Shown: positions 1 through 20,000 of the stretch, piece by piece
How the letters are laid out: each line of letters starts with the position of its first letter
How positions within the stretch are numbered: position 1 is the first letter of the stretch
IMG/VR virus record: IMGVR_UViG_3300035187_001477
From: an uncultured virus (IMG/VR IMGVR_UViG_3300035187_001477)
Lineage: Duplodnaviria; Heunggongvirae; Uroviricota; Caudoviricetes; Crassvirales
Strand: one strand, 5' to 3'
Length of the DNA stretch: 20,000 bases
Made by a program: the position numbers and the translations under genes
The notes under the pieces: generated by a model
Database searches by the model: none
The model's input: only the letters and a program-made list of their open reading frames with translations
Told to the model about the DNA's origin: nothing

Positions 1-2804
1 TCGATGGTAGCACCCTCAAGGTCTACAGCGTTTGATATTTCTACAATCCTTTCACCTTTATTATTCTCATACCCACCAATAAACTCAAGGACGTTGGTCT
101 TGATACCAAGTAAACTGCCAATATCTGCAAGTGTTTGCAGGTATCCCTTATACGCAGGAGACTCTCTTAATGCTGCAGCTTCTGAGGTAGACCCAACTTG
201 TGTGTTAAAGAATGGAGCTACATTTACCCGTGTCTTTGAAGACACTTTTTGAAGAGCATCTAATTCGTTAAGAGCTTCATCCACTGCTATGGTTTGATCT
301 CCAATAGTGATGGTCTCTTGATCATCTTCTACAGCAGCGAGCGCTTTGATTAGCGCATCTTTCCTTTCTTGTTGTTCGGGGCTGAGGACTTTTTCACCCT
401 CTTGGGTAATGACTTCAAGTCCTGTTTTGGGTTCTCCTTGCGCCAACGCTTCGCTATCTCCGGGTGTTGGCTGAACAGATACTTGACCTGCTGCTTGCTT
501 TTGAATGGCATCTTGTGATATTTTAGTTAGTTGTTCATTAATAGCTTTTACTCTTTCTCTTTGTGGTACGGTAAGCGCTTCGTCTTTCCCATCAATCTGA
601 CGCTCCAAGTCACGCTTCTCTTTAAGTAAGTTCATAGCCTCCTTCTTTCCCTGCAAATCAAGGTTGGGAGGAAGTGAATTGAATAAACCAACAGCATTGC
701 GGTAATCGTTGAGTGTCTCTTTGGCTTCAGCCATAGTAAGCTCACCTGTATTCACCTTGTTCTGAAGGCTTATGATAAATGCTTTTTCAATCTTTGTATC
801 GTTGGCTGCTGCTTCAAACAACTCAAACTGTGTGTCGCTCATACCCAAAAATCCCTGCTTACGATAAGCAGCAGAAAATCCCGGCAGCGTTCCAATAATA
901 GCACCACCTACTGCTTCCTGTGCACCGGCATACGCAGCGTTTCTAACGTAATCCATAACACTCTCAGGGGTCTCAAACATCTGCTTACCCTTGACAGCAT
1001 TGTATACATCTTTAAGTCCTGACTCAGCAAGTTCTTGTGCAGCACCGGTCTCTGCCTCAGCAAGAGCACCTCCTACAACAACAAGAGTTCCACGAGCAAG
1101 ACCACTCTTTACTTCATTCTTTATTAGTTCATTAAAAGTTCTTGCAGATGTTGTACCACCTGCTTTACCTAATGCTTTTACAACAAGACCATTAAGTAAG
1201 CCTTTGTTTGCTAACACGTTTCTAAAACCTATAGCCTCGAGCGTACCAACAGCCGCACCAATTGGAAGAGTAACAGCAAGCTTTTCATTTTCAGATATGT
1301 TATCGAACTCAGGGTTGTTTGCCATCTCTTCGTTTAGATTGTCACTTACCTGAGCATACATCTGAGCCGTGCGTTGCGCCCATCCAACAGGACCTGAACC
1401 ACCCATCATTGCAGGGACAGACTTAGCAAGACCCAATACTGCGCCTCCCCAAAATCCCTCATTCTTTAAGTCTTCCCACTGAGTAGTAGTGCTTGAGTCT
1501 CCATATACAATTCTGTTTCCTTTTCTTATTGGTTCAAGCCATCCACCTTCACGCTTACCTGTTTTGGGGTTTACTTCTCCATACAGTACTGCTTTCTTCG
1601 CTTCATCCTCAACCTCGTCATCTATATCATCCATTACTCCGCTTGGTAATTTATTTTTCCAAGCTTCAAATTCTTCTTGACTTTTTAATTCACCAAGAGA
1701 AAATCTTGGTGGCTGATACCCCATCCTCTTGGCTTTCTCAATAACAGCAGCCCGATACTCATCACGCCCCATCAACATTTCTTTTGGAAGCAACTCTGCT
1801 TCCAAATTTGTAATAAGCGAAAAGGCTGTAGATGATATTGATGCTGCCCCATCTAAGAAGGCATTTGCTATACCACCATACCAAGTCCCCTGTTGAGCTT
1901 TTTGCTCTGTGTATTTGCCGACAGCTTGATTAAGCACTCCCATCCGATTCTTAATATCGGTTTCGGTAGCCATAGCACCGGTTACTTCTTTATTAAAATT
2001 TAGTTTGTTTTCATTAAGTTTTTGAAAACGCTCTTGAAAGGCAGGATTATTTCGCTGTGCTGATGGTGTAGAATTGATTGCGTTTTCTTCTGCCTCTATT
2101 TCTTTCTTTCTCTTTAATAACTCTTGCGTTCTTAATCTGAAAGCATACTCTTCCTCTTGCATCTTCTTGGTGACATCTTCAACCTCTTTCTCTGTAGTGT
2201 ATTTTTTATTGGCAGTAGTATACTCTTTTTCAAGAGTCTGTAAGTTATTTATGGTAGCAGAGTTCTCTCTTAAAAACTTTCTAAGAGCCTCAGACTCTTC
2301 CTTGTCTCCTGCTGTAGTCCAATTATCTAATGAGATTCTTGCTTTCTTTCCATTGGGAGCAGTAACATCTACAAAATCTCTTCCGGGTACAGCTTCATCA
2401 AACTTGAAACCCATAGGTCCAAATTGATAGCGCAGTTGAGGGACGACATATTCCTCTCCCTTGTCAATTAAGTCAGGGCTGATAGCAGCGAGTTGCTCTT
2501 CGACAAAATTAGGAAGCTTCGTAGGTGATACCAATGAACCACCTGCCGAAGGTAATGCCGTAGTGACTTTTTTTTTAGAAGGGTCCTCTGCTGTTGCAGC
2601 TACTTGAGGAGTAGCCGGCATAGCAGATAAGTACTGCTTAGTAAAATCAGTCTTAGGTTTTGTGTATAAACCATCCCTATTAAGAACACCGTACACTTTC
2701 TCTTGATATGCAGCATCCTTGAACTTTGTCTTGAAAGCATCATAGTCCTGAGTAAAGTATCCTTTCTCTACAAGTAAGTCGTATAGTTTTTGTAACTCGT
2801 CCAT
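1..2804 (-). CDS. Giant virion/ejection protein (gp16-like position, possibly polyvalent), >934 aa, 3' end beyond the window
   Basis: Hand translation from ATG at 2804 (MDELQKLYDLLVEKGYFTQDYDAFKTKF...) stays open to the window edge (...EISNAVDLEGATI). It is absent from the ORF track, consistent with having no stop inside the window. It has an A-rich start context (AAAAAAAATCTAATG), coiled-coil-like stretches and Gly/Ala-rich hydrophobic segments, and is the third of three genes after the GNAT-like gene. Confidence 0.85.
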   Translation of the reverse strand, partial: MDELQKLYDLLVEKGYFTQDYDAFKTKFKDAAYQEKVYGVLNRDGLYTKPKTDFTKQYLSAMPATPQVAATAEDPSKKKVTTALPSAGGSLVSPTKLPNFVEEQLAAISPDLIDKGEEYVVPQLRYQFGPMGFKFDEAVPGRDFVDVTAPNGKKARISLDNWTTAGDKEESEALRKFLRENSATINNLQTLEKEYTTANKKYTTEKEVEDVTKKMQEEEYAFRLRTQELLKRKKEIEAEENAINSTPSAQRNNPAFQERFQKLNENKLNFNKEVTGAMATETDIKNRMGVLNQAVGKYTEQKAQQGTWYGGIANAFLDGAASISSTAFSLITNLEAELLPKEMLMGRDEYRAAVIEKAKRMGYQPPRFSLGELKSQEEFEAWKNKLPSGVMDDIDDEVEDEAKKAVLYGEVNPKTGKREGGWLEPIRKGNRIVYGDSSTTTQWEDLKNEGFWGGAVLGLAKSVPAMMGGSGPVGWAQRTAQMYAQVSDNLNEEMANNPEFDNISENEKLAVTLPIGAAVGTLEAIGFRNVLANKGLLNGLVVKALGKAGGTTSARTFNELIKNEVKSGLARGTLVVVGGALAEAETGAAQELAESGLKDVYNAVKGKQMFETPESVMDYVRNAAYAGAQEAVGGAIIGTLPGFSAAYRKQGFLGMSDTQFELFEAAANDTKIEKAFIISLQNKVNTGELTMAEAKETLNDYRNAVGLFNSLPPNLDLQGKKEAMNLLKEKRDLERQIDGKDEALTVPQRERVKAINEQLTKISQDAIQKQAAGQVSVQPTPGDSEALAQGEPKTGLEVITQEGEKVLSPEQQERKDALIKALAAVEDDQETITIGDQTIAVDEALNELDALQKVSSKTRVNVAPFFNTQVGSTSEAAALRESPAYKGYLQTLADIGSLLGIKTNVLEFIGGYENNKGERIVEISNAVDLEGATI
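350..511 (-). CDS. Nested small basic protein, 53 aa (MPFKSKQQVKYLFSQHPEIAKRWRKENPKQDLKSLPKRVKKSSAPNNKKGKMR)
   Basis: ATG at 511-509 and TAA at 352-350, in the +1 frame of the giant ORF. The upstream context is A-rich (ACTAAAATATCACAAG-ATG, A at -3). From memory it resembles small phage proteins beginning MPFKSxxQ. Confidence 0.6.
   Translation of the reverse strand: MPFKSKQQVKYLFSQHPEIAKRWRKENPKQDLKSLPKRVKKSSAPNNKKGKMR
2568..2576 (-). other. A9 slippery site (A_AAA_AAA), candidate -1 frameshift or transcriptional slippage site
   Basis: Minus strand reads TCT AAA AAA AAA GTC. The -1 frame continues SHYGITFGRWFIGITYEAS to a TAA at 2511-2509. Confidence 0.5.
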
Positions 2805-2822
2805 TAGATTTTTTTTGTTCTG

Positions 2823-4652
2823 TTAATCCAATTCACCTTTTAAGATTCCCTTACCCTCAAGACCTTTTAAGAATATAACTTGATCTTCTGCAGATGCGCC
2901 CGGAACATTTGAAAGCATAAATGCTCTTATTTTTTCGGCTGCCTTTGCAGGATCACTTAAGTATATTGCAGAAGATGATTTGCCATCAGAATTTGTTAAT
3001 ACAATTGCATCAGACCCAATAACAGCTTCTCTAACGCTAAACCCAAGCTCATTAAACTTCGCTTCGTTTGCAGAAATAAAATCAGTTTCATCTGTTGGTT
3101 GATTAGCACCTGAGAATACCGTTTTAAGGTGGTCTGCATACATCTTGTTAGGGTCACCTGTTTTCTTAGGACCTGTAGAAGTAGCCTTAGCTTCCCCTGC
3201 TTGGAATGTTGTAGTCTTAGTTTGAAGTGCACCCTTTACAACTTCGTTAACATCAACTGTTCCTCCAAGAAGTAGAGGAGCTGCTGAACGAACAAAGTCT
3301 TGTTGAGTCATCATCTCTCCCGTGTTAGCGTTCTTGAATGGAATAGCTTTAGTCGAACCATCATTAAAGGTAATGCTAACTCCATCATTAGTTCTACTTA
3401 CATCTTTTACATTTGGCATACCATAGAAGTGGTTGATAGCAGCTTGTTGTTCTGCAGGAGTACCACTATATAGTTTAGCCAACATATTACCTGATGTCTG
3501 AGCGCTTTTCTTTTGATCACCTCTTTCATAAACGTATTGAGGAGGATAGTAAGTAGGCTCTTTTCGTGGCTGACTGAACGGTTGCACTTCAGTTTTCTGC
3601 TCAAGCATACTACGAAACTTATTTTTAGTATACTCTTCAGCAGTCTTTAACTGATCCTTGCCATTCTGTGTGCTCTCAAAGTCAGGTTGAAATACACCAT
3701 CCTTATGAGACCACAATATATAATGAGAGCTTGAATTTGCTACGTTAGGGTCCGTTGTAACCTGATAAGCTTTGCCTGATTTAGGGTCAATGCCTCCGGT
3801 CCAATCAAACAATATGGAAGATACGTGCGCAGGGTTAGATAGTTGCGCCTGTACAATAAGTTTTTCGCTTTCAATATATTTGTCGACAGCTTGCTGTCCT
3901 TCTTGACTAAGACCAACACGTTTAGTTGGGTCTGTAACCTTGGTAAGGAAGCCTGTCTGAGTTGCACTACCTGTAGAAGTAACAACCTCCTTTACCACAT
4001 CGCCTAATAATTTTGCCTCTTGACTTAGGTTTTCATTCAGAGCGTACTTGTCAATCTTTTCTTTGATACGGTTACGCAGTTGGTTTACCGTCATATAATT
4101 GTCGGGACCTTCAGCAAGAGTCTTAACACCATTTTTATCTACCATCTTACCAATGCTGATAGCACCGGTAGTTGGATTAATCAAAGCTTTGGTTTGACCA
4201 AGGTTTGCAAATCCTTCAACCATTGCCATAAACTGAGTCTCAGCTTCTGAGCTTTCACCCTTCTGCCTACGCTCTGTCTTTACAGAAAACTCATCTTGAT
4301 ATTCTTTCGCAAGGTCAAACATTCTTTTAGTTCCATCCTTGCTATTCTGACGAATGAGCGCATAGTCTTTAGGTTTCATTTGACCCGACTTAAGAAGTCT
4401 GTCTGTAAGAAGTCTATACTGCTGCATATCACCGGCATAGTCTGTAATGTACTTATTTACATCATCAGACAATCCTTGTGGTGCGTTCTCAAGTTCTTCA
4501 CCAAACTGACGAGACGCATCATCAAGAGCCTTCTTTTTTGCTTCACGAAGTGATGCCTCTTGCTTTAGAGTATTGGTTAATTGACTACCAACCTCCGACC
4601 AATCTATCTGATTCTTGGCTTCCCGTTCAGCGTATTTGTAATATGTTGCCAT
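2823..4652 (-). CDS. Putative internal virion/ejection protein (gp15-like position), 609 aa
   Basis: Long ORF tightly coupled to the upstream gene (TAA TAA ATG). Helical, charged N-terminus. Synteny matches podovirus ejection-protein clusters. Confidence 0.6.
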   Translation of the reverse strand: MATYYKYAEREAKNQIDWSEVGSQLTNTLKQEASLREAKKKALDDASRQFGEELENAPQGLSDDVNKYITDYAGDMQQYRLLTDRLLKSGQMKPKDYALIRQNSKDGTKRMFDLAKEYQDEFSVKTERRQKGESSEAETQFMAMVEGFANLGQTKALINPTTGAISIGKMVDKNGVKTLAEGPDNYMTVNQLRNRIKEKIDKYALNENLSQEAKLLGDVVKEVVTSTGSATQTGFLTKVTDPTKRVGLSQEGQQAVDKYIESEKLIVQAQLSNPAHVSSILFDWTGGIDPKSGKAYQVTTDPNVANSSSHYILWSHKDGVFQPDFESTQNGKDQLKTAEEYTKNKFRSMLEQKTEVQPFSQPRKEPTYYPPQYVYERGDQKKSAQTSGNMLAKLYSGTPAEQQAAINHFYGMPNVKDVSRTNDGVSITFNDGSTKAIPFKNANTGEMMTQQDFVRSAAPLLLGGTVDVNEVVKGALQTKTTTFQAGEAKATSTGPKKTGDPNKMYADHLKTVFSGANQPTDETDFISANEAKFNELGFSVREAVIGSDAIVLTNSDGKSSSAIYLSDPAKAAEKIRAFMLSNVPGASAEDQVIFLKGLEGKGILKGELD

Positions 4653-4655
4653 TTA

Positions 4656-5432
4656 TTAAAACTTGAATGATTTTCTTAAATCCTTTAAGTAATCGGGACT
4701 TAAGCCTCCCATAAAAGCTTGGAACTCGAGTGGGTTCATACCACCAACACCGGCTAAGTTCCCAAACGTAGGCGATGCTGCACCAAATTCAGCAAGCTTT
4801 TGTTGAAATTGATCTTGAGTAAGCCCTGCTTTTTCTGCACCTCCTGCTAATTTACCAAATTGTTTTGCACCTGCTGATTTAGAGTACAATGGAGCCATAC
4901 TTGCTACCTGACCTGCCATACTTACTACACCTTCCAATGCTTGTTTGGTTGCTGCTTGAGACCTTGTCTCAGCTTCTCTCGCTTTTAACTGAGCACCCTC
5001 AACTTCTGCAAGATCAAGACCCATACCTACATCACGAAGTCTGCTATCTTCAGCGGCTTCAAGTTTATCAAGCGCCTGCATCTCACCACCCATTTGTGTA
5101 GCAATATCACGCTGTGCTTTTTCAGCACCCAAGAATACACGTCCTGCAGTAGCTGCTGAACCACGCTCGCTTTCTTGACCTGCCTCAATAGCTTGAGCTG
5201 CAGTAGAAGTAACGGCTTCACGAGCAAGCTCGTATGGTTCTTTTTGAATACCCAACTGCTCGTAGAAGTTTACGTCAAGTTTTTTACGAGCGTCAGCCAT
5301 AAACTTAGCTGCATCTGCTTCAGCTTTTTTCTGAATTTTACGTTGCTTTGATGCTTGCGAAAATGATGCCGCAGTAGTTCCTGCAGTAGCTGCTAAGCCT
5401 ATACCTGCTGCAATGGTTGTGAAAGCTGCCAT
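4656..5432 (-). CDS. Putative small ejection protein (T7 gp14 / P22 gp7-like position), 258 aa
   Basis: Hydrophobic Ala/Gly-rich N-terminus (MAAFTTIAAGIGLAATAG) followed by an Ala/Gln/Lys-rich helical region. It directly follows the GNAT-like gene. Confidence 0.65.
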   Translation of the reverse strand: MAAFTTIAAGIGLAATAGTTAASFSQASKQRKIQKKAEADAAKFMADARKKLDVNFYEQLGIQKEPYELAREAVTSTAAQAIEAGQESERGSAATAGRVFLGAEKAQRDIATQMGGEMQALDKLEAAEDSRLRDVGMGLDLAEVEGAQLKAREAETRSQAATKQALEGVVSMAGQVASMAPLYSKSAGAKQFGKLAGGAEKAGLTQDQFQQKLAEFGAASPTFGNLAGVGGMNPLEFQAFMGGLSPDYLKDLRKSFKF

Positions 5433-5433
5433 A

Positions 5434-5844
5434 TTACAATACTTTTATTAGTTCACCTATATACCCATCGCCTAAGATATACCCTAATTCTTTATAGGTA
5501 TCCTTTAGCCCCGGGTGTTTTATCAAAGCATAAGAATATTTATGCCCTGTATTTCTACAAATATTAGTCAATGTTTCGACCAATAGTTTTATTGCCTCAC
5601 TTCTCTCCGGTTTCTTTCTATACTCCTTGTTGGATATTATCCAATCAACCCACGCAACCTTTGAGTTCGTGGTGTATATAAATCCTGCACACACCGGCTC
5701 ATCTTCATCAAGCACCATTATGCCACCCTTACCATCATCAGGTAAGAAATCTCGTTGAGCAGGCTCCCATCCCCATTCCTTCCACCACCCTACTAACGTA
5801 GAATCATAATCATTTTCGTTCAATGGTCGTACAATAAATGCCAT
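5434..5844 (-). CDS. GNAT-fold (acetyltransferase-like) protein, 136 aa
   Basis: GNAT-like pattern: 'IVRPLNENDY' at the start, 'PVCAGFIY', 'WIISNKEYR' and 'YKELGY' near the end. Its position is equivalent to T7 gp13 / P22 gp14. Confidence 0.65.
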   Translation of the reverse strand: MAFIVRPLNENDYDSTLVGWWKEWGWEPAQRDFLPDDGKGGIMVLDEDEPVCAGFIYTTNSKVAWVDWIISNKEYRKKPERSEAIKLLVETLTNICRNTGHKYSYALIKHPGLKDTYKELGYILGDGYIGELIKVL

Positions 5845-5849
5845 CTATA

Positions 5850-5857
5850 CAAAGATA
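5850..5857 (-). promoter_or_regulatory. Bacteroidota sigma-A -7 promoter element (TATCTTTG)
   Basis: Matches TAnnTTTG in the intergenic gap, 5 nt upstream of the GNAT-like ATG. No clear -33 TTTG. Confidence 0.55.
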
Positions 5858-5865
5858 TTGAAAAA

Positions 5866-6672
5866 TTAAGGATAACTTTTCATCACTTCTGACTCTACGG
5901 CAAAGAGTTCTACCTGACTAACACTATTGTTTTCAAGGTTGAAAACGCAGTAGTGTCCGAGGACACCGTGCGATTCTGCCACAGCGTTTTTGATAAACAT
6001 TATGTACGGGTTCTGTATAGCCGGGATGGTAGCTCCGGGTATGGTCGTATCCACCGTAATCCTGTTAAGGTTGGATGGATAGTTCTGCTGAATATTGGTC
6101 ACCCTCCCGAACAGCAAAGGCGTATTGTAAGTTGGGGGCAGGCTATAGTATAGCATATCCCCGATGCTTATGATACTACCTATTGATATAGGGCTTGCTC
6201 CGATCGCAAAATTGACCTGAACGGCTGACCCTGTACCGGTAATGGTAGTGCTCCTACCTATACCATTGGTAAGCCTAAGAGCGTACTCAGAAGGCTGTGC
6301 CGGTGTAGTACCTGCGTTACGGACAAAGGCAAAGAAAGAGGCTTCCTTCTTTTCAAAGTAGCTGCCTTGAATAAAGCCATCGTCCATTAAGTCGGTCACC
6401 ATTGTTACGGACCAAGGAGCATCACCTTCTAAGTTGATGGTTTTGAATAGCTTATTCTCAAGCGGAGACTCATTGAATACGCTTTGTATACGTGATGGGT
6501 ACTGCACTCCGTAAAAGTTATTACGGGTGTTGTTTACGTTGTGCCTATACAGGTTTCCACCCTTAAACGTATAGAAGTAGTTATTCATCCCGATCATCCA
6601 ATCAGGCAAAAAGGAATAGAAGGATGCCCATCCTTCTACCCCTTCACTATATGTTAGTGTATATGCTGCCAT
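5866..6672 (-). CDS. Tail protein resembling the C-terminal part of the stabilization/muzzle protein, 268 aa
   Basis: Begins TLTYSEGVEGWASFYSFLPDWMIGMNNYFYTFKGGNLYRHN, contains FNESPLENKLFKTINLEG and FEKKEASFFAF, and ends ELFAVESEVMKSYP. These motifs are recalled from the C-termini of crAss-like stabilization proteins. Confidence 0.65.
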   Translation of the reverse strand: MAAYTLTYSEGVEGWASFYSFLPDWMIGMNNYFYTFKGGNLYRHNVNNTRNNFYGVQYPSRIQSVFNESPLENKLFKTINLEGDAPWSVTMVTDLMDDGFIQGSYFEKKEASFFAFVRNAGTTPAQPSEYALRLTNGIGRSTTITGTGSAVQVNFAIGASPISIGSIISIGDMLYYSLPPTYNTPLLFGRVTNIQQNYPSNLNRITVDTTIPGATIPAIQNPYIMFIKNAVAESHGVLGHYCVFNLENNSVSQVELFAVESEVMKSYP

Positions 6673-6675
6673 AGT

Positions 6676-7836
6676 TTAACATTGTACTGATGAATAAGCT
6701 GTTATCTCTCCCCCTCCGCTCATATCCCAATTTGCAGAAGCAAACACAAATAGCTCGAGAACAGGACTTGTCATTGCCGCATCCCAAAATAAGTTGCATC
6801 CTACATTAGGTGTTGGACAATCGCAGTATAGAATCTTAGGGTTTGTGCCTGCATCAGAACAAGCTGCAGCGGCACTTACATTGCTTACTCCGCATCCTCC
6901 AATAGAATAAGACCCTCCACCTGAGCAAGGTCCAATTGCCACAATAACACCATTGGCATCTACCTGAAACCAATCGTTAGTTGTTCCTGCAACAGCGGTA
7001 TGATAGTATCCGGCAGTAAGCTTAAACTCACCGTTAGGGTCACTGAATACTAAATCGTATAGCCCAAGTGTCCCTGCACCGCCTGTAACATAAGCTACAT
7101 AATATCCTACAGTAATTCCTAATGCACAAGCAGCGGTATTAGTTGCAGCCATTGGAGATGCCTCAAAAACAGGTAAAGCTGCAGGGCAAGCAACTGACAA
7201 ATCAAATGCTGTTCCTGAGCAGGGACCAATGAATGTCAAGTCAAGTATAGATGGTGCAGCGGTTGTTTTTGGTATTACCATTACGCAATTACCGGGACCT
7301 CCTACTGTTAAATCCATTTGCCCTGACAAAACACTAACTGTTGTAGTCGTACCTAATGAAGAAAAAGTTGTTCCGTTATACTCATATTCGTCAAGAGTAT
7401 GAGGAGAACCTGAAACAATATTACAATCTGCAGATGTAGCTCCAATATACGTAGGAAGACCTGCGCTACCTTGTAACCATCCGTATGATGGAGAAGATAG
7501 ACCATTGTAAGATATACTATTAAACACAGCTAATACGCCATCCGGCACGCTGTATGGATCAAACGTAACTACAACAGCGCCTGTGTCAGTTCCTAAGTCT
7601 ATTCCTACATAGTATATACCCTGTTGTCCCGATGCTGCTATTGATCCCCCACAAGGAGTAGCACAAGATGGGCAAGAGGTCTGAGGCAGTAATACACCCG
7701 ACACTTGCTCACGCACAATTGTACCATCTGAGTAAAACCCATCAGGCGCAACCGTGGTCAGATTAACATCGGTATAAATAATTGTAGCTGACGCAAGAGA
7801 TGGCGCATCTACGTAAAAAGTTCCTTGTGTTGCCAT
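6676..7836 (-). CDS. Cys/Gly/Thr-rich beta-structured virion (tail accessory/fibre-like) protein, 386 aa
   Basis: The N-terminal ~58 aa are paralogous to the 81 aa ORF. It carries CPSC, AAC and CDC motifs and very few basic residues. Confidence 0.6.
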   Translation of the reverse strand: MATQGTFYVDAPSLASATIIYTDVNLTTVAPDGFYSDGTIVREQVSGVLLPQTSCPSCATPCGGSIAASGQQGIYYVGIDLGTDTGAVVVTFDPYSVPDGVLAVFNSISYNGLSSPSYGWLQGSAGLPTYIGATSADCNIVSGSPHTLDEYEYNGTTFSSLGTTTTVSVLSGQMDLTVGGPGNCVMVIPKTTAAPSILDLTFIGPCSGTAFDLSVACPAALPVFEASPMAATNTAACALGITVGYYVAYVTGGAGTLGLYDLVFSDPNGEFKLTAGYYHTAVAGTTNDWFQVDANGVIVAIGPCSGGGSYSIGGCGVSNVSAAAACSDAGTNPKILYCDCPTPNVGCNLFWDAAMTSPVLELFVFASANWDMSGGGEITAYSSVQC

Positions 7837-8095
7837 TTAATTTAAGTTTATGGTGCGATACAGTTACAACATACATCAAGTGCGCTTACAGTTGAATAAC
7901 AAAGAGTAACCTCTGTACCACAACCGGGGCAAGCTGATTGAGCTTGTAGCACCCCACTAACCTGTTGCCTAACAATACTATTATCTGAATAGTACCCATC
8001 AGGCGCAAGAGTTGTGAGTCCAACATTAGTGTAAACTGCAGTTGCCGTAGCAAGTGACGCAGCGTTTAAGTAATAAGTTCCTTGTGTTGCCATTT
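7818..8095. repeat. 21-bp direct repeat at the starts of the two paralogous genes (7818-7838 and 8075-8095)
   Basis: aagttccttgtgttgccattt occurs at both places, reading AAATGGCAACACAAGGAACTT on the minus strand. Confidence 0.85.
7848..8093 (-). CDS. Small Cys-rich protein, 81 aa (MATQGT module plus LCYS-x7-CC-x-C motif)
   Basis: Fills the gap between two genes and has an AT-rich start. Its N-terminus is homologous to the 386 aa protein and its C-terminus to the tail of the 1490 aa protein. Confidence 0.8.
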   Translation of the reverse strand: MATQGTYYLNAASLATATAVYTNVGLTTLAPDGYYSDNSIVRQQVSGVLQAQSACPGCGTEVTLCYSTVSALDVCCNCIAP

Positions 8096-8104
8096 TATTT
8101 TATT

Positions 8105-11100
8105 TTAATCATTACAACCGCAGCAAGCATCCAACAAACTTACGTTTGAGTAGCATAAATCAAATGCCGGTGGAGGTACATCGCATCCGCAACAAGCGTT
8201 GTTTGTGTCTGCATCAGAGTAACACAACTCAAGTGGCAGAGAGCTTCTGTAATCCCATATCAAATATAAATATTGTCCGCTGCTTGGGACGGTAAAAGTT
8301 CCTGTATAATATCCTGCTGCTCCTGTTGGTGCAACTGTTGTAGCTGCTGCAAGTAAATTTGCAATGCCAACCTGAGTGTTAGGGTATAGTGTATTGCTTC
8401 TTAAATATCTAAACTTATTGTAAGAAGGATTGAAATCAAAAGTATCAAATCCTTGCTTGTTTGAAATCAACTCCATTGCTGCTCCTGAAGGAGGGAATCC
8501 ACCTGTGCCTTGAGGACCAATGATAATATTGTACTCAGATACCACAGGACTTTGAGCAGATGAATCAAATGTTACAAGTGTAGACTGAAGAGGTGAAATA
8601 AATCCTGCATCCGTATACCTGTACTCATTATGGATAAACTTACCGGCATCGGCATTGCTTGTTAAGCAGATGTTGACAATACCTATCTCGTTTGCTTCTA
8701 CGCAGTTTACAAGTACGCTTACATTGACGTTGTCAGTAGCAATAACATTAACAATAAGTTCGTTAATAGCGTTACTGTTTTTGGCTATTGTAAGAGACCC
8801 TGATGTAGTTACTACCCCTGAAGAAACAGTAGTTAACCCATAAGTTACTACCACTTCAAATTCAGCAGTTGATGATGGGTCTACCGTATAGTCAACGATA
8901 CAGTCTCCAACAGAGGTGTCTTCAAATATCACCCCATACTGCCTGTTTGATCCTGCTTCAATAGTGAAGTCTTGCTCGATACCGCAACTATAAATAATAG
9001 GAGGAATAGGCACAGAGCTGTCGTTAGTGGTGAGCACATACTCATTCATATATGGGTCAAACCCACCAAGCTTTTGAGTATTGAAGGATTGGATAAAGTT
9101 ATCTCTAAACCAAGTCCGCATACCTTGCTCAGACACCACTCTTAATTGGTCTGTGCTATAAGAGTTTCCAATAAGTTGCAGTACAGCCCCACGCTTTACG
9201 TCTGTAAAGTATCTATAGTAACCCCATTGTACATAGCTTTCAGGATGGAAGCTGATACCATACTTCTCAACACGAGCAATTTGAGTACCCAATACTTCAG
9301 GCACGGAGGTAATAGCACCACCGGCTGCAGCATCTGAGAGTAAGTTCTTGCCTGCAAGTACGTATGAAATCTTATCTTCTTGTAGCGTAAGTACGTCAGT
9401 CTCTCGTCCATCTAACTTATAGATAGGACCGAATGATACCTCTAAATATTTGTAGTTAAGCAGTCCTAAATTGAACTCATTTAATTTATTAACATTTGAC
9501 TCAAAGTTATACACACCACTGTATGTGATGTCAGCAAAGCGCCTTGTTCTCTTGTATTGCTGTACCGATATGGACGTTACACGGTTGCCAAGATTAAAGG
9601 TCTTGCCAATAATTGAGTCACGAATCTTATAGCTTTCAGCACCATTACCAAAACAGAAACAGTTAAAGAACTCTGTGTCTATTATTGCCGGCAAAGATGC
9701 AGTTTGGTTCTGTATGTTACCCAAGTGTCTTCCGTTGGCATCAATACCAAAAGACAAATGATTCTCAAAGAATACATCAGGTAATGAGTCAACGGGTTGT
9801 GTCTCGAATATCAGGGTAGTCTCAGCTCTAAACACTTCAATGTTTACAATAACAGTAGACCTACGCTTCTCTCTCGAAGCTACACCACCACATCTAAGAG
9901 TACCACTGACAATAAGAGTTAGCTGATTATTGGCAGGATTGCGATAGAACCTATAATAGTTTTTACACAAATCAGTTGAAATGTCTGTGTTGTTTGATGC
10001 AAGTGTAGGTATAAATTCATTTTCAACAGGACATTCATTACCCCCAACCTCTTGATCTCCATCATCAAGTATCTGTTCTACGTTGTCTCCAATCCACCAC
10101 TCCATCATATTATCATAATTGGCAGAAGAAACAAGCGTTTTCTCTAAAGTATAAATACGCCTCTCACAAGCTCCATTACCTTGACCAACACCAAGACGCT
10201 GAAACTTAAAATATAATTTAATTCTACTACCGGCAGGTACAGTATAATCAACCCAAGCACTTGTTGCGGTATCAAATCTGTTCATTGGGTAGTTCAAAAT
10301 AGGATACTCTCCTGCATCGTTTTGATCTACCTGTTCGTTGCCCGGTGCAATAATTGAAAGTTCATCCTGAACAACAGCAAAGCTGTTTGGATTAATCTTC
10401 ATATATACCCCCGATGGAACAGGAATATTTACGGTAGGGTCAAGTTCACTTGGTATCTCAATGAATCCTGCTTGCTTAGCTTCTTTCTCAAGCACTGTTG
10501 CGTATACGCAATTATTTGTAGGTCCACTTGTGTCAGCCTTTACGATAAGCCTATCACCCTGCTGTACCTTACGTGCGTTTTCTCCTTCAAGTAAAAAGTA
10601 TGCGTTATTACTTAGAGGGTCGTCAAAGAAGATGCTACTATATATGGTATCGTAACTTTCTTCGTCAGGCTTAATAACAAACTTATATCTCTTAGCCCAA
10701 GCCGGAGCTATCTGAGTTGTAGGAATAGTTACCCTAATAGAGTTCTTGGTATCAGATGCAGAGCAAGGAATGTGTACTGTATTTCTTGGACTAACCAAGG
10801 CTGTAGTAGAACGACCAAAGTCATCCATATACACGATACCAATCTCATACCCACGATTGCTATGCAAGCTGCGTGGTGAATTTATTTTTTGATAGAAAGC
10901 TTCTGCAAAGTTTACTGAGTAATACTCATACACACTAATTGTTGGTGTAGTAGTATTGTCAACATATCTCATTGCAGGAAACTGTAGACCAATTATTTGA
11001 CTTGCAGGTGTAGTAATAATGCTTATTGGCTGACCTGCAGCAGAAATACCACTCTGAAACTTTATTAGTGCGTCTAAGTTGTTTGGTAGTGCACAGTTAA

Positions 11101-12577
11101 GCTGATCAGTAAATGTTGTCCCATTACAAGAGTTTGCTATAGGCTGAATATTTGCAATCGTTCCAATAACATCTTGAAACGCTACACTTGTAGCCATCTG
11201 ATAAACAGAAGTATATGTAGTTGGAAGTGTAAACGTAAGCGTCAAATTAATGTTTTCGCTTGTCTCTGTAGGGAATGGGGTGCTCCCTGCAAACATATTG
11301 TGCGTAAGCCTTACATCTAATGTAATTGAAGAACCGGCAATAAGTTGTATACCTGTTAGGTTAATATTTACAGTCGCATTTGGAATAGTTTGATTGCTAC
11401 CAAAACTATATATACCAACAGATGTAGTGTCAGGTACACTTGTAGTACCAACCAATTCAGAAACTGCAGAAGCAACGTACTCAAGTTTGGTTACGTTTCC
11501 ATTCTTGTCAACTAAGTCGTATCCCTCAACATAGTTGCCATACATTAAACGATTGCCCATAATAGTTTGGGCTCTTGCAAGAAGTGGTACGTTATCATAC
11601 AACCTAAGTAACTCTGACTCAGGAAGTACTGTAAATATCTTACTATTTGTAAACGTATATGTATAGTTGGTGTTGTTTGCAAGACCAAGCTCAGCCTTAT
11701 CAAGATTCTCTATAACCTTTACAATACTTGTTCCTGCTTCTTTGAATAACAGGTCAACACCAACAACAAGCGGACCACCTGAGTTATATGTAATGATAGC
11801 AGTGTTGTTCAAGTTTACCATCCCCTCATTGAGGTAGCTATTAATACTGAACTCAAATGGGTTGGGAGAAAACGCAGGGGCAGACCATTGAGATGTCGCA
11901 GAATATTCTCCATCTTGATAACGATAACGATATGCGAAACAGATAAACCTGTCTTCCATAAAGTTGTCTTGCTGACCTGTTCTTATCTCACGAATAGCAG
12001 GAGCTGCAATTGGTGGTTTCTTAATTACAAGTAGCGACTCTGCACTAAATTGATCTATGTTACCAATAGGGTTGGCATAGTTTCTTGTTATATTAAATAC
12101 CCTTGGAGGGTTGTAATTATCAGTAAAAAATATCAACTGATCAATAAGGTCAACACCTGTAATTAAAAATTGAGGATTAAAGTTTAGCGTAGTGTTTACA
12201 CCACCACCATCATTGATGCTAATTACGTGGTAGGTAAGAGCGTTTTGAATTGTGTTATACGACACAATCATATCAAGTTTCCCGGTAGCTCCAATAGGGA
12301 AGGTGGGGTCGTGTACAAACCAAAATATTCTTTCGTTTGCACTATCATCAATTGCACCAATACATTTTGCGTTTGCGCTAAGTGGTGTATTATTAACATA
12401 CCTAAGCTGAGTAAGAGCTACGTTACCTTTTGTATTTTCTATTACACCAATCTCAGCTTGCTCAGTAGAACCCATACGGACGTTGAGCGCATCAATATAC
12501 TCTCCGTTTGGAACAAGTCGCTCGTCTACGACCTTGTTCATCCTACCTGCTATGAAGTTCCTTGTTATGTTTGGCAT
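8105..12577 (-). CDS. Tail stabilization/muzzle (nozzle) protein, P22 gp10-like / crAss-like, 1490 aa
   Basis: N-terminus 'NFIAGRMNKVVDERLVPNGEYIDALNVR', plus 'LIFFTDNYNPPR', 'FAYRYRYQDGEYSATS', 'YEIGIVYMDDFGRST', 'YGISFHPES' and 'YFTDVKRGAVL'. These are recalled as typical of this family. Confidence 0.8.
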   Translation of the reverse strand: MPNITRNFIAGRMNKVVDERLVPNGEYIDALNVRMGSTEQAEIGVIENTKGNVALTQLRYVNNTPLSANAKCIGAIDDSANERIFWFVHDPTFPIGATGKLDMIVSYNTIQNALTYHVISINDGGGVNTTLNFNPQFLITGVDLIDQLIFFTDNYNPPRVFNITRNYANPIGNIDQFSAESLLVIKKPPIAAPAIREIRTGQQDNFMEDRFICFAYRYRYQDGEYSATSQWSAPAFSPNPFEFSINSYLNEGMVNLNNTAIITYNSGGPLVVGVDLLFKEAGTSIVKVIENLDKAELGLANNTNYTYTFTNSKIFTVLPESELLRLYDNVPLLARAQTIMGNRLMYGNYVEGYDLVDKNGNVTKLEYVASAVSELVGTTSVPDTTSVGIYSFGSNQTIPNATVNINLTGIQLIAGSSITLDVRLTHNMFAGSTPFPTETSENINLTLTFTLPTTYTSVYQMATSVAFQDVIGTIANIQPIANSCNGTTFTDQLNCALPNNLDALIKFQSGISAAGQPISIITTPASQIIGLQFPAMRYVDNTTTPTISVYEYYSVNFAEAFYQKINSPRSLHSNRGYEIGIVYMDDFGRSTTALVSPRNTVHIPCSASDTKNSIRVTIPTTQIAPAWAKRYKFVIKPDEESYDTIYSSIFFDDPLSNNAYFLLEGENARKVQQGDRLIVKADTSGPTNNCVYATVLEKEAKQAGFIEIPSELDPTVNIPVPSGVYMKINPNSFAVVQDELSIIAPGNEQVDQNDAGEYPILNYPMNRFDTATSAWVDYTVPAGSRIKLYFKFQRLGVGQGNGACERRIYTLEKTLVSSANYDNMMEWWIGDNVEQILDDGDQEVGGNECPVENEFIPTLASNNTDISTDLCKNYYRFYRNPANNQLTLIVSGTLRCGGVASREKRRSTVIVNIEVFRAETTLIFETQPVDSLPDVFFENHLSFGIDANGRHLGNIQNQTASLPAIIDTEFFNCFCFGNGAESYKIRDSIIGKTFNLGNRVTSISVQQYKRTRRFADITYSGVYNFESNVNKLNEFNLGLLNYKYLEVSFGPIYKLDGRETDVLTLQEDKISYVLAGKNLLSDAAAGGAITSVPEVLGTQIARVEKYGISFHPESYVQWGYYRYFTDVKRGAVLQLIGNSYSTDQLRVVSEQGMRTWFRDNFIQSFNTQKLGGFDPYMNEYVLTTNDSSVPIPPIIYSCGIEQDFTIEAGSNRQYGVIFEDTSVGDCIVDYTVDPSSTAEFEVVVTYGLTTVSSGVVTTSGSLTIAKNSNAINELIVNVIATDNVNVSVLVNCVEANEIGIVNICLTSNADAGKFIHNEYRYTDAGFISPLQSTLVTFDSSAQSPVVSEYNIIIGPQGTGGFPPSGAAMELISNKQGFDTFDFNPSYNKFRYLRSNTLYPNTQVGIANLLAAATTVAPTGAAGYYTGTFTVPSSGQYLYLIWDYRSSLPLELCYSDADTNNACCGCDVPPPAFDLCYSNVSLLDACCGCND

Positions 12578-17740: not shown

Positions 17741-20000
17741 CTATCGAGGTTCAAATTCTGCTAAATCAAACCCGTCAAGCGTGTCCTCGTTAGACTCGAA
17801 GTTCATAGGAGGAAGGTTGTTTTTTCTTTGGTTAATCAGCTTGGATTGCTCCGTATTTTGCTGACTAATCCTTCTTGCCTTCTCTTTCTCCTTCATATCC
17901 TCCCTGCTCATTATAGCGGTCTCCTTAAGACCACCTAACTGCATTTGGTATTGGAACTCCTCGTTCATGAGCATTCGCTTCATCTCAGCCTCAGCTCTTA
18001 GCTTCTCAATATCGAAAGCTACCTCGGCTTGCTTAAGCTGCATCTTGGCCTGAGACTCAAGCTGAATCTTTTGCATAGCCGTTTGTGCCGCCATCTGCTG
18101 AGATTGAAGTTGTTGCTGAGCCATCATGGCCTGCTTCTGCATCTCCATCTTCTCCTGTCGGTCTTGTTTCTTTACACGTTTAACCTTAAGTAACTGATTA
18201 GCAAGCTTTATATTCTTGATTTCCCTGATGTCGATGGCATCCTCAAGGTTGATGTCTCCCTTAGACAGGGCCATTTGAATGTTGGCCTCAAGCTGAGCTT
18301 TCTGCTCTTCATCCGGAGATACCTCGATAAATATACCAAAGTCATATATGTACAAATCCTTAATCTCATTGAGTAAGGATACATTGTACTTGCCTATCTT
18401 ATTAGCGAAATCATCTTTAAAGTCTGCGTATTCCAAAATATCTGCAACACGGTAGGTAAGGGCCTCAGCAAGCGACCTATAAATAAATAAGCCTCCTTCG
18501 AGAATGTGGCGTGTAGCCGTATTAGAGTTAAGTGCAGCGAGCTTTTGGACCCCTACCAATGCGTTTGGATCAGGCGTTGAGCCATCTCTTACTTCATTCA
18601 GACCGGTTACCGACCTGATCATATCAAGGTAGTGATTGTAGTTTGCTATCAGCATCTGTGTTTTAGAAGCCCCCGAATTAGAGGTAAGCTGCTGAATAGG
18701 TATTCTTGCATTGTTGAAATCTCCCTCTTGAGTATAACTACGTCCGATGACGCTACCCGTTTGGAAGTAAAGACGCAACGCATCTTCAGGATTGTATGCC
18801 TGACCTGTACCCAAGTCTACTTCATTGAGACCATCGGCATCAATGAATACACCATCAGGAACAGTACGAGCAATAACCTGCTGAAGCTTTAAGTGAGTAA
18901 GTTGAATTAAGTCAGCGAATGGAACCATTCTACGTACAAGAGATTCAATAACCCCTTTGTACATTCTTGGTGCAACCGCTATATAATTTGGTAACGCATG
19001 TTGAGATGTTGACTTTGGTCTTACCATGTTCTCTGACATCTTCCATTTAAGCAAGATGTTAGTACCCATAACCATCACACCTTCATACCATACGTCAATA
19101 GTCTTTTCTATTTTTTCAAACTTTCCTTCCTCCATCATTTCATAAGGAGGGTTGAACTGATCATCTTTCTCAATCATTCTTGTTCCACCACCATCAAGAA
19201 TTTTTTTCTTGTAAACAATTTTCTTGGTGCTCTTATAGTTGAAATAAAGAAGTGTTGCTGTATCACGATAGAACAAACTGTTCTCATAAAAACGTGCTAC
19301 GTTGTAGTAGTCATACCAACTCTGAGAGTACATAGATATTTCTTGCAACTGCTCACGTGTAAGTGTTGGATCAATCTTCAACAACTCTGTAATTGGAAGC
19401 GTTTTAATTTCTCCCCAATAAAAACAATCCTGAAAGAATGGATCTTCTGTATAGCTATATACAATATTTGCAGGATCTACATACGAAATTTGAACACCGG
19501 CTCCGGGAAGGAACTCGTGCTTTGCACAACCAATACCAAGTACAGTAATATCGTAGTCAATACGCTTACGTGTATCTTGATAATGATTCTCATCAAATAG
19601 TGTATTGATCGCTTCTTCTTCAGCAATCTCAATTGCAGGCTTATAATTAAGCTGCATATATAGTGATAATTCTTCGTCAGTTTCAGGAAGCTCATCAGGG
19701 TCCATCATAAATGGATTGGCACCCGTTTCTTGTTGAATAGTAGTAAGAACATCTTTCGCAGCCATCTGTCCCTCGATCATATCTTGGTACTTGCTGCGCT
19801 TTGATTGTGACATTGCATCTTGTGCGTATGCTTTCACTTTGAACAAGCGATCTGACATACCATTCACAACAATGTCTACAAACTTTGGTAAAATAGGTAC
19901 AGGCGTCCAATCTAAATTTAGATATGACAAATCTCCGTCTATTGCAAGTTCATTTTTATACTTCTGCACAGACTGTTCACCACGAGCATATAATCTCAGT
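17741..20000 (-). CDS. Portal protein, 5'-truncated by the window edge
   Basis: The frame stays open beyond the GTG given in the track (LRLYARGEQSVQKYKNELAIDGDLSYLNLDWTPVPILPKFVDIVVNG). It has a Gln/Met-rich coiled-coil C-terminus typical of podovirus portal barrels and lies upstream of scaffold and capsid genes. Confidence 0.85.
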   Translation of the reverse strand, partial: LRLYARGEQSVQKYKNELAIDGDLSYLNLDWTPVPILPKFVDIVVNGMSDRLFKVKAYAQDAMSQSKRSKYQDMIEGQMAAKDVLTTIQQETGANPFMMDPDELPETDEELSLYMQLNYKPAIEIAEEEAINTLFDENHYQDTRKRIDYDITVLGIGCAKHEFLPGAGVQISYVDPANIVYSYTEDPFFQDCFYWGEIKTLPITELLKIDPTLTREQLQEISMYSQSWYDYYNVARFYENSLFYRDTATLLYFNYKSTKKIVYKKKILDGGGTRMIEKDDQFNPPYEMMEEGKFEKIEKTIDVWYEGVMVMGTNILLKWKMSENMVRPKSTSQHALPNYIAVAPRMYKGVIESLVRRMVPFADLIQLTHLKLQQVIARTVPDGVFIDADGLNEVDLGTGQAYNPEDALRLYFQTGSVIGRSYTQEGDFNNARIPIQQLTSNSGASKTQMLIANYNHYLDMIRSVTGLNEVRDGSTPDPNALVGVQKLAALNSNTATRHILEGGLFIYRSLAEALTYRVADILEYADFKDDFANKIGKYNVSLLNEIKDLYIYDFGIFIEVSPDEEQKAQLEANIQMALSKGDINLEDAIDIREIKNIKLANQLLKVKRVKKQDRQEKMEMQKQAMMAQQQLQSQQMAAQTAMQKIQLESQAKMQLKQAEVAFDIEKLRAEAEMKRMLMNEEFQYQMQLGGLKETAIMSREDMKEKEKARRISQQNTEQSKLINQRKNNLPPMNFESNEDTLDGFDLAEFEPR

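Follow-up and report, generated by a model that had tools for sequence, protein, structure and literature searches.

A candidate slip site in an adenine run near the start of a giant virion-protein gene of an uncultured crAss-like phage

Mechanisms by which a single gene yields two proteins through slippage or frameshifting are already known, with dnaX, the lambda G/GT pair and tssM as examples. The -1 shift of Escherichia coli dnaX uses a Shine-Dalgarno-like element before the site and a hairpin behind it, and the slip site of Thermus thermophilus dnaX lies about two thirds of the way along the gene. Bacterial RNA polymerase slips efficiently at nine A's or T's, and T. thermophilus dnaX makes use of this property (parts of PMC5009743). 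Here we analyze a 20,000-nucleotide stretch of DNA, referred to as the window, from an uncultured virus of the Crassvirales (IMG/VR IMGVR_UViG_3300035187_001477), in which codons 77 to 79 of a giant virion-protein gene form a run of nine adenines (A9). Our preferred explanation, held with modest confidence on the basis of comparison with relatives, is that this run is a programmed slip site at which RNA polymerase adds one A. The same comparisons indicate that a shifted short protein is most likely made from the gene.

The adenine run and the reading frame behind it

The giant open reading frame (ORF) starts with the ATG at 2804-2802 on the minus strand and leaves the window at its edge, with its 5' 934 codons inside (3..2804, from the ORF list and its translation). 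Codons 77 to 79 read AAA AAA AAA (2568..2576, minus strand), exactly as an earlier reading of these letters, the sequence-only reading, had stated, and they encode the sole Lys-Lys-Lys (KKK) of the giant gene. That reading had also written out the -1 frame correctly: a TAA overlaps the start of the run (2575..2577, minus strand, from the translation of 2400-2577) and is followed by AAA, AAA, a tail of 19 codons encoding SHYGITFGRWFIGITYEAS (2512..2568) and a TAA stop (2509..2511). The 0 frame over the same stretch reads VTTALPSAGGSLVSPT. From the TAA at the run to the stop, the -1 ORF comprises 21 codons and contains no ATG, GTG or TTG. Since the -1 frame is closed at the run and offers no start codon, entry into it must happen inside the run, and an independent start for the tail appears very unlikely. 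Within the tail lies the motif YGITFGRWFIG (2530..2562, minus strand), recognized as conserved by motif and codon-entropy comparison. The A9 run is the only homopolymer of at least nine bases in the window; taken within the window it is unremarkable, and it gains significance from being conserved in relatives.

Relatives were collected in two scans of viral contigs (14 and 51 loci) and one scan of metagenome contigs (36 loci), and their core identity to the window protein ranged from 100% down to 25-30%. The set from the first scan lies on contigs also returned by the second and was used to compare KKK codons, while the census draws on the two wider scans, whose 87 loci correspond to 63 unique site regions. 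KKK is coded as AAAAAAAAA in all 12 of the first loci analyzed. The N-terminal domain, the run and the core share one frame in 54 of the 63 unique sites, with A9 in 10, A10 in 41 and A11 in 3. None of these 54 in-frame sites has a run below nine A's, so that every one reaches the hybrid length (at least nine). Nine to ten bases correspond to about the length of the RNA-DNA hybrid. Depending on the lineage, the run starts at codon position 1, 2 or 3. Past the run, the -1 frame continues for 16-63 codons before its stop, which lies 0-11 codons beyond the motif, mostly 4-8, and in several relatives this frame likewise opens only at the run. The strict motif, [YF]G[IFVL]x[FILC][GCAR]x[WYFC][FW][FIV]G, is found in the -1 tail of 48 of the 54 in-frame sites, and a relaxed form, whose pattern was written after the variants had been seen, in 6. 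Four of the 63 unique sites are off-frame (L048, L060, L071 and L100), and no feature was scored in five (L056, L073, L059, L098 and L101, the last of which ends inside the tail). The sequence-only reading had named conservation of the run and of the -1 peptide as its own checks, and both came out in its favor: pure runs of 9-11 A's, with no mixed AAG/AAA codons, are kept in 54 of the 63 sites, and the peptide and its stop are conserved with codon signatures of the -1 frame.

The domains that precede this tail are of different types (MPDLRQALKDF..., MNEQAIID..., MDELQKLYD... and MEEQLLKEY...) and the tail is the same (P0014, P0003, L034, L055 and L082); P0014 and P0003, for instance, have distinct N-terminal types and almost identical tails. 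By these alignments the tail is better conserved than the domain attached to it, and the presence of varied N-terminal types on one tail suggests that domains have been swapped between lineages. In four loci (L034:2179-2277, L045:2185-2298, L051:2710-2811 and L052:653-754), we observed a half-motif, FFGI or FIGL, straight after KKK, followed by a Ser/Thr/Arg-rich spacer and the complete motif, which looks like a partial duplication of the tail.

Is the -1 peptide itself under selection? The strict motif occurs in 29 of 32 unique tails. Across 528,926 six-frame residues from the unique loci of L015-L065 it matched 43 times, 41 times in the -1 frame behind the run and twice in the tails of L048 and L060, with no match outside tails; the motif was derived from the same data, and only this empty background counts as a test. 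Codon-position entropy over the 33-nucleotide (nt) motif block of the 29 unique tails was 0.66, 0.45 and 1.20 bits at -1 positions 1, 2 and 3, respectively. The most variable base is thus the -1 third position, which is the second position of the 0 frame, and the pattern is therefore the opposite of that left by 0-frame selection. All four GGN codons are used for the three near-invariant Gly codons of the motif. Mean pairwise amino acid identity over the block was highest for the -1 frame (0.547), against 0.405 for the 0 frame and 0.350 for the +1 frame (0.675 at the nucleotide level).

Variation within the clade of the window, which comprises six loci with five unique DNA sequences (L015, L017/L066, L018, L067 and L068), gave a similar picture. 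Upstream, 62 of 228 sites vary and, downstream, 63 of 303; the run itself has no variable site among its 9 and the overlap has 1 among 59. Variability in the overlap is about 14 times lower than in the flanking stretches (1/59 versus 125/531; Fisher's exact test, p = 7.8e-6). Its sole variable site, window base 2557, is the third base of a -1 Gly codon (GGC, GGT or GGG), where the changes are silent in the -1 frame and exchange Ala, Val and Gly in the 0 frame. Taken together, the specificity of the motif, the frame signature and the within-clade variation indicate purifying selection on the -1 peptide in its own frame.

Proposed polymerase slippage and its alternatives

In the mechanism that we propose, most transcripts and ribosomes would go straight through the run and yield the 2752-amino-acid (aa) virion protein. 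In a set fraction of cases, RNA polymerase would add one A on the nine-base homopolymer and so bring translation into the -1 frame, where it would end 19 codons on. The product would be a protein of about 98 aa consisting of a four-helix domain, a linker, KKK and a tail of basic, aromatic and Gly residues, and slippage would set the ratio of short to giant protein. The core of the sequence-only reading, a slip in the A-run that gives a ~98-aa isoform sharing its N-terminal domain with the giant protein, is supported by the comparison of relatives. Free-standing ORFs in public assemblies that match the short form exactly (P0003, P0004, P0005, P0007 and P0014) speak for it too, as evidence at the level of DNA or contigs. 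As to its role, our guess is that the short form would assist virion assembly or protein ejection as an accessory factor. Its N-terminal domain, which the giant cargo protein also has, would act as an address, and the tail would carry the function by docking to a membrane or to some component of the phage tail or capsid.

Which machine slips, the polymerase or the ribosome? We favor the polymerase because the run is never shorter than nine, all three phases are used and no conserved RNA structure accompanies it. Among the lineages compared, the run is kept independently of its phase, as transcriptional slippage predicts. Of four RNA-labelled sequencing runs, compared as assembled contigs, only one, the lake metatranscriptome X19, covers the site (X16, X18 and X20 miss it), and there the run has one extra base. 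The X19 evidence is weak, being one 170-nt contig with adapters at both ends, a depth of 3.4 and 10 mismatches, which correspond to a relative of about 92% identity; A9 is found in all five unique DNA sequences (six loci) of the window's clade.

A -1 ribosomal frameshift on A_AAA_AAA, or sliding on the AAA codons, would leave the mRNA unchanged; we regard it as possible but less likely, and it may also join polymerase slippage. As the sequence-only reading had noted, A_AAA_AAA fits the X_XXY_YYZ form; it stands in the right phase, with the third base of codon 77 followed by codons 78-79. An in-phase A_AAA_AAA (A_AAA_AAG in L051, L057 and L062) is found at every locus in whatever phase the run stands, and the comparative evidence for a functional -1 product fits this explanation equally well. 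Seven A's would suffice for the ribosome, yet all 54 in-frame unique sites keep at least nine. In E. coli, AAG is the best choice for the last codon of a slippery heptamer, whereas AAG is rare as the last codon here, and the extra base in the sole RNA-derived contig is a further point for the polymerase. The sequence-only reading had also pointed to weak hairpins behind the run; the pairing ACCT-TCGGC-AGGT is indeed present, but the 141-nt fold is not unusual (z = -1.64, equalled by 14 of 200 shuffles), and the hairpins are neither significant nor conserved. Six folds of 141 nt gave z values from -1.97 to +0.70, and over 40 unique loci the mean z was -0.73 for the upstream 45 nt, -0.41 for the downstream 60 nt and -0.68 for a control stretch. 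No conserved downstream hairpin, pseudoknot or other stimulatory RNA element was found in these folds, a feature that is not obligatory for all phage shifts: some work without stimulatory signals (parts of PMC5009743).

Three further explanations need no recoding of the mRNA reading at all, or place the change in the DNA. The run might be kept for KKK or as a nucleic-acid signal, with the -1 pattern a by-product of 0-frame constraint. The 0 frame of the tail stretch does have a weak Ser/Pro/Gly-rich pattern, A9 alone is within chance, and the case for a -1 product is built on sequence. Nevertheless, we judge this explanation improbable: the variable bases cluster at second positions of the 0 frame (third positions of the -1 frame), the -1 frame is more conserved than the 0 frame and is open for up to 63 codons with its stop always just past the motif, the overlap is far less variable than its flanks, and AAG never occurs inside the run though it is the commoner Lys codon of the giant gene (126 AAG versus 104 AAA). 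Overlapping small genes occur in phages, and the tail might be a separate micro-ORF with its own internal start and no frameshift. With a 21-codon -1 ORF that lacks ATG, GTG and TTG in the window and with several relatives open only at the run, this is barely credible. A contingency locus, at which replication slippage would create DNA subpopulations encoding either the giant or the short protein, would account for L048 (A8, where relatives have A10) and L060 (A11), in which the N-terminal domain is fused in frame to the tail, for L071 (A9, where relatives have A10), which goes into the +1 frame, and for short ORFs of both shifted frames in the protein collection. There, the 98-aa ORF of L048 matched 12 short proteins: P0003 (identical to L048), P0004, P0005, P0007 and P0014 are free-standing short forms with the tail, P0006 and P0008 are +1-frame read-outs, P0011 has a deviant tail, and the remainder are truncated or 0-frame pieces. 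The short form is thus a plausible stand-alone ORF by its sequence, and such free-standing ORFs may stem from errors, from variation in the DNA or from contigs that derive from RNA. However, only 4 of the 63 unique sites are off-frame rather than the run length being frequently polymorphic, and A9 is uniform within the window's clade. L100 is broken elsewhere than the other off-frame loci, L060 and L100 have further frame breaks in the gene, and their off-frame state is likely an assembly error. A genome without the conserved 2752-aa virion protein should moreover be defective, and we consider a contingency locus very improbable.

Several points weigh against programmed polymerase slippage to a short protein. 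The short protein is deduced from the comparison of sequences. X19 is a single contig of a related strain from a library made by reverse transcription-PCR, and DNA carry-over or a slip during reverse transcription or PCR are possible sources of the extra base. In each of the phases encountered, A_AAA_AAA also qualifies as a ribosomal slippery heptamer, and the sequence fits both machines. The A9 run by itself is within chance: one was found against 1.17 A9/T9 runs expected, and such a run turned up in 108 of 200 dinucleotide shuffles. Because the -1 motif served as the anchor of the motif block, conservation at -1 positions 1 and 2 is overstated; the third-position spread and the within-clade result are free of this inflation. 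The linker and tail are unstructured in an AlphaFold2 model of the short form, with a predicted local distance difference test score (pLDDT) of about 45-54. In L098, an A10 run precedes an open -1 frame of 47 codons in which the motif is missing. Finally, L056, L073 and L059 (with L095, a repeat of the contig of L059) are without run and tail. The feature is absent in 2 of 21 clusters (average linkage at 60% core identity), and the device is therefore dispensable there. These two lineages, L056/L073 and L059/L095, retain the N-terminal domain in the absence of the A-run and the -1 tail; as natural losses, they could show what replaces the short form.

The two proteins and their genomic setting

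The N-terminal domain common to both products spans codons 1-59 (2628..2804, minus strand) and contains two helix-loop-helix repeats, as judged from an internal repeat and from the AlphaFold2 model of the homologue P0007. A Pro/Ala-rich linker follows at codons 60-76 (2577..2627, minus strand), and alignments show that its length and sequence vary among relatives. P0007 was modeled with a 54-row alignment of natural short forms, N-terminal parts and -1 tails, including that of the window, all as unaltered translations. The model predicts four helices (residues 3-15, 22-31, 33-45 and 52-59) with pLDDT 84-91 over residues 1-60, at an overall mean pLDDT of 75.1 and a predicted template-modeling score (pTM) of 0.54. 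The aromatic beta-hairpin-like tail proposed in the sequence-only reading found no support here; AlphaFold2 shows no secondary structure in that part, with pLDDT below 50. A Foldseek search of the Protein Data Bank (PDB) with the short-form model returned no match (best E-value 3.1), and in a protein atlas lookup the best scores, 0.81-0.83, were to unnamed viral clusters. A predicted complex of four short-form copies scored 0.00 in a prediction run without controls, which makes it uninformative on self-association.

The tails have a basic cluster (KKK plus R or K), then Tyr, Phe or Trp, Ile and three spaced Gly residues. This make-up suggests an interfacial or strand-docking element, which may need a partner or a membrane in order to fold. 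The beta-signal of outer-membrane proteins, a tail anchor and a sorting signal were considered for the tail, and none of them fits all tails.

The full-length giant gene is found at 6001-14259 of L002, a viral contig 100% identical to the window, and encodes 2752 aa in 2752 codons. Sequence searches of the giant protein gave no Pfam family, with sub-threshold matches only, and no PDB match; it does match PHROG 32588 and PHROG 3170, both without an assigned function. No function for the N-terminal domain came from Pfam, PHROGs or PDB sequence searches. The 5' part of the giant gene had zero matches in DNA and protein searches of a phage collection, and the full protein had only partial, distant ones. 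Residues 1137-1377 (L002:9409-10131, past the end of the window) are about 44% identical to annotated lysins of cyanophages and an Octadecabacter virus and also match many mycobacteriophage records (phrog_3170), a hint that the giant protein contains a cell-wall-degrading module. Residues 2136-2521 share about 22% identity with a 3694-aa 'structural protein' found in Flavobacterium phages in culture (genus Elemovirus; elemoA). No D-x-D-G-D polymerase motif was found in the giant protein, and for this reason we do not call it a virion RNA polymerase. In the leader, a run of eight A's (T8 on the plus strand, window 2809-2816) lies 4 nt upstream of the giant ATG, and the close relatives L001-L005 keep a run of A7-A8 at the same place.

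The minus strand of the window is a phage structural block, in which a muzzle-domain gene is followed by three smaller genes and then by the giant ORF. The block also includes a portal gene (17741-19969, phrog_6547), a gene for a 1490-aa protein (8105-12577, phrog_14478) and several genes of 'virion structural protein' families; the muzzle-domain gene (5866-6672) encodes a 268-aa protein with a domain match to the Crassvirus muzzle C-terminal domain (PF25729, crAss_MUZ_C). The 1490-aa protein, encoded two genes upstream of the PF25729 gene, matches the N-terminal 1366 positions of phrog_14478, and a muzzle-like protein may be split over two genes here. In the phage PhiCrAss001, the gene order is muzzle, gp45, gp46 and gp47, the last being the first giant cargo protein, of 262 kDa (parts of PMC10172136). 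The giant gene of the window stands at the place matching gp47: it comes after portal, virion, muzzle and small cargo-sized genes on the same strand, as Crassvirales cargo genes do. It is a reasonable inference from this placement that the giant protein is a cargo or ejection protein. As a flat statement, the label 'ejection-protein gene' given in the sequence-only reading went further than the evidence, which consists of gene order and the lysin-like domain. The phage is present in lake-water metagenomes, where the whole stretch was found in 15 DNA runs, its source possibly among them.

Possible reach of the device and comparison with known systems

Two genomes outside the census extend the search for similar sites. 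In the cultured phage elemoA (elemoA_6-5A, MT497112.1; L103:1437-1446), an A10 run at codon 57 (GAA AAA AAA AAT) is the only run of at least eight A's in an 11-kb giant structural gene, and it is followed by an open -1 frame of 46 codons in which Phe, Tyr, Trp and Gly abound (...FGFSY...YIGW...NWGFGIFCWER). In MW202828.1 (L104), a complete 60.8-kb podovirus genome from a spring, an A11 run is found at codon 63 of the giant coding sequence (CDS, 741-12320), which has the same N-terminal domain type and a degenerate tail, RYCIKLGRYSICIERKY. We count both as leads because their tails fail the strict motif. The giant CDS of MW202828.1 is annotated 'reticulocyte binding/rhoptry protein', a name that looks spurious.

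On this basis we tentatively raise a broader idea, which we rate as possible rather than probable. An ancient polymerase-slippage device would reside at the 5' end of the giant cargo gene of many Bacteroidota podophages, including freshwater and marine crAss-like phages and possibly Elemovirus. It would give rise to a small virion or ejection accessory of a new class, whose conserved aromatic-glycine tail, more conserved than the N-terminal domain that it follows, would dock the giant cargo protein in a fixed proportion to the phage tail or to the envelope of the host. We found no description of the slip site in the literature on crAss-like phages, phage slippage and recoding, or elemo phages, a search outside which most subscription journals and supplements lay; a paper that links Crassvirales with frameshifts turned out to deal with nanopore errors. 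Neither 'frameshift' nor 'slippage' appears in the text on the PhiCrAss001 structure (PMC10172136). As far as we found, the gene family and its tail are undescribed.

Annotation shows one giant gene at this locus, where a second small protein would be encoded, unreported by gene callers, in dozens of phage lineages of lakes and the sea. If this is true, a large and well-replicated family would be added to the few known productive homopolymer slippages, and crAss-like phages, in which packaging and ejection are little understood, would provide the first one from their cargo or ejection genes. Homopolymer 'errors' at the slip site in assemblies should then be neither blindly corrected nor dismissed, and the small ORFs on some contigs would be the natural short form. 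Being in culture and carrying a similar run, elemoA could serve as a bench model.

Among the described systems, T. thermophilus dnaX has the same basic layout. It also has a nine-base A/T homopolymer and a long and a short product with a common N terminus, its short form ends soon after the shift, and no stimulatory structure is needed (parts of PMC5009743). Unlike dnaX, which encodes a clamp-loader subunit, the gene analyzed here encodes a phage virion protein, its site lies at 3% of the gene, the trans-frame tail is a conserved 11-residue motif, and slippage is deduced by comparing relatives. With E. coli dnaX (A_AAA_AAG) our locus shares a lysine-codon slippery heptamer that would lead to a truncated isoform, but it has no conserved structure, and its run is always at least nine and mostly ends in AAA.

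Lambda G/GT is likewise a phage morphogenesis gene in which a fixed-ratio frameshift gives two proteins with a shared N-terminal part (parts of PMC5009743). There, the shift yields the longer and rarer product at a site close to the 3' end, whereas here it would yield the short one, and this crAss-like podophage has neither a tape measure nor a tail chaperone. In Citrobacter rodentium tssM, slippage on poly-A yields a large envelope-machine protein in two lengths (parts of PMC4256274). In that gene the run interrupts the frame and slippage rescues it; in the giant gene of the window the frame is intact, and a slip would add a shorter product.

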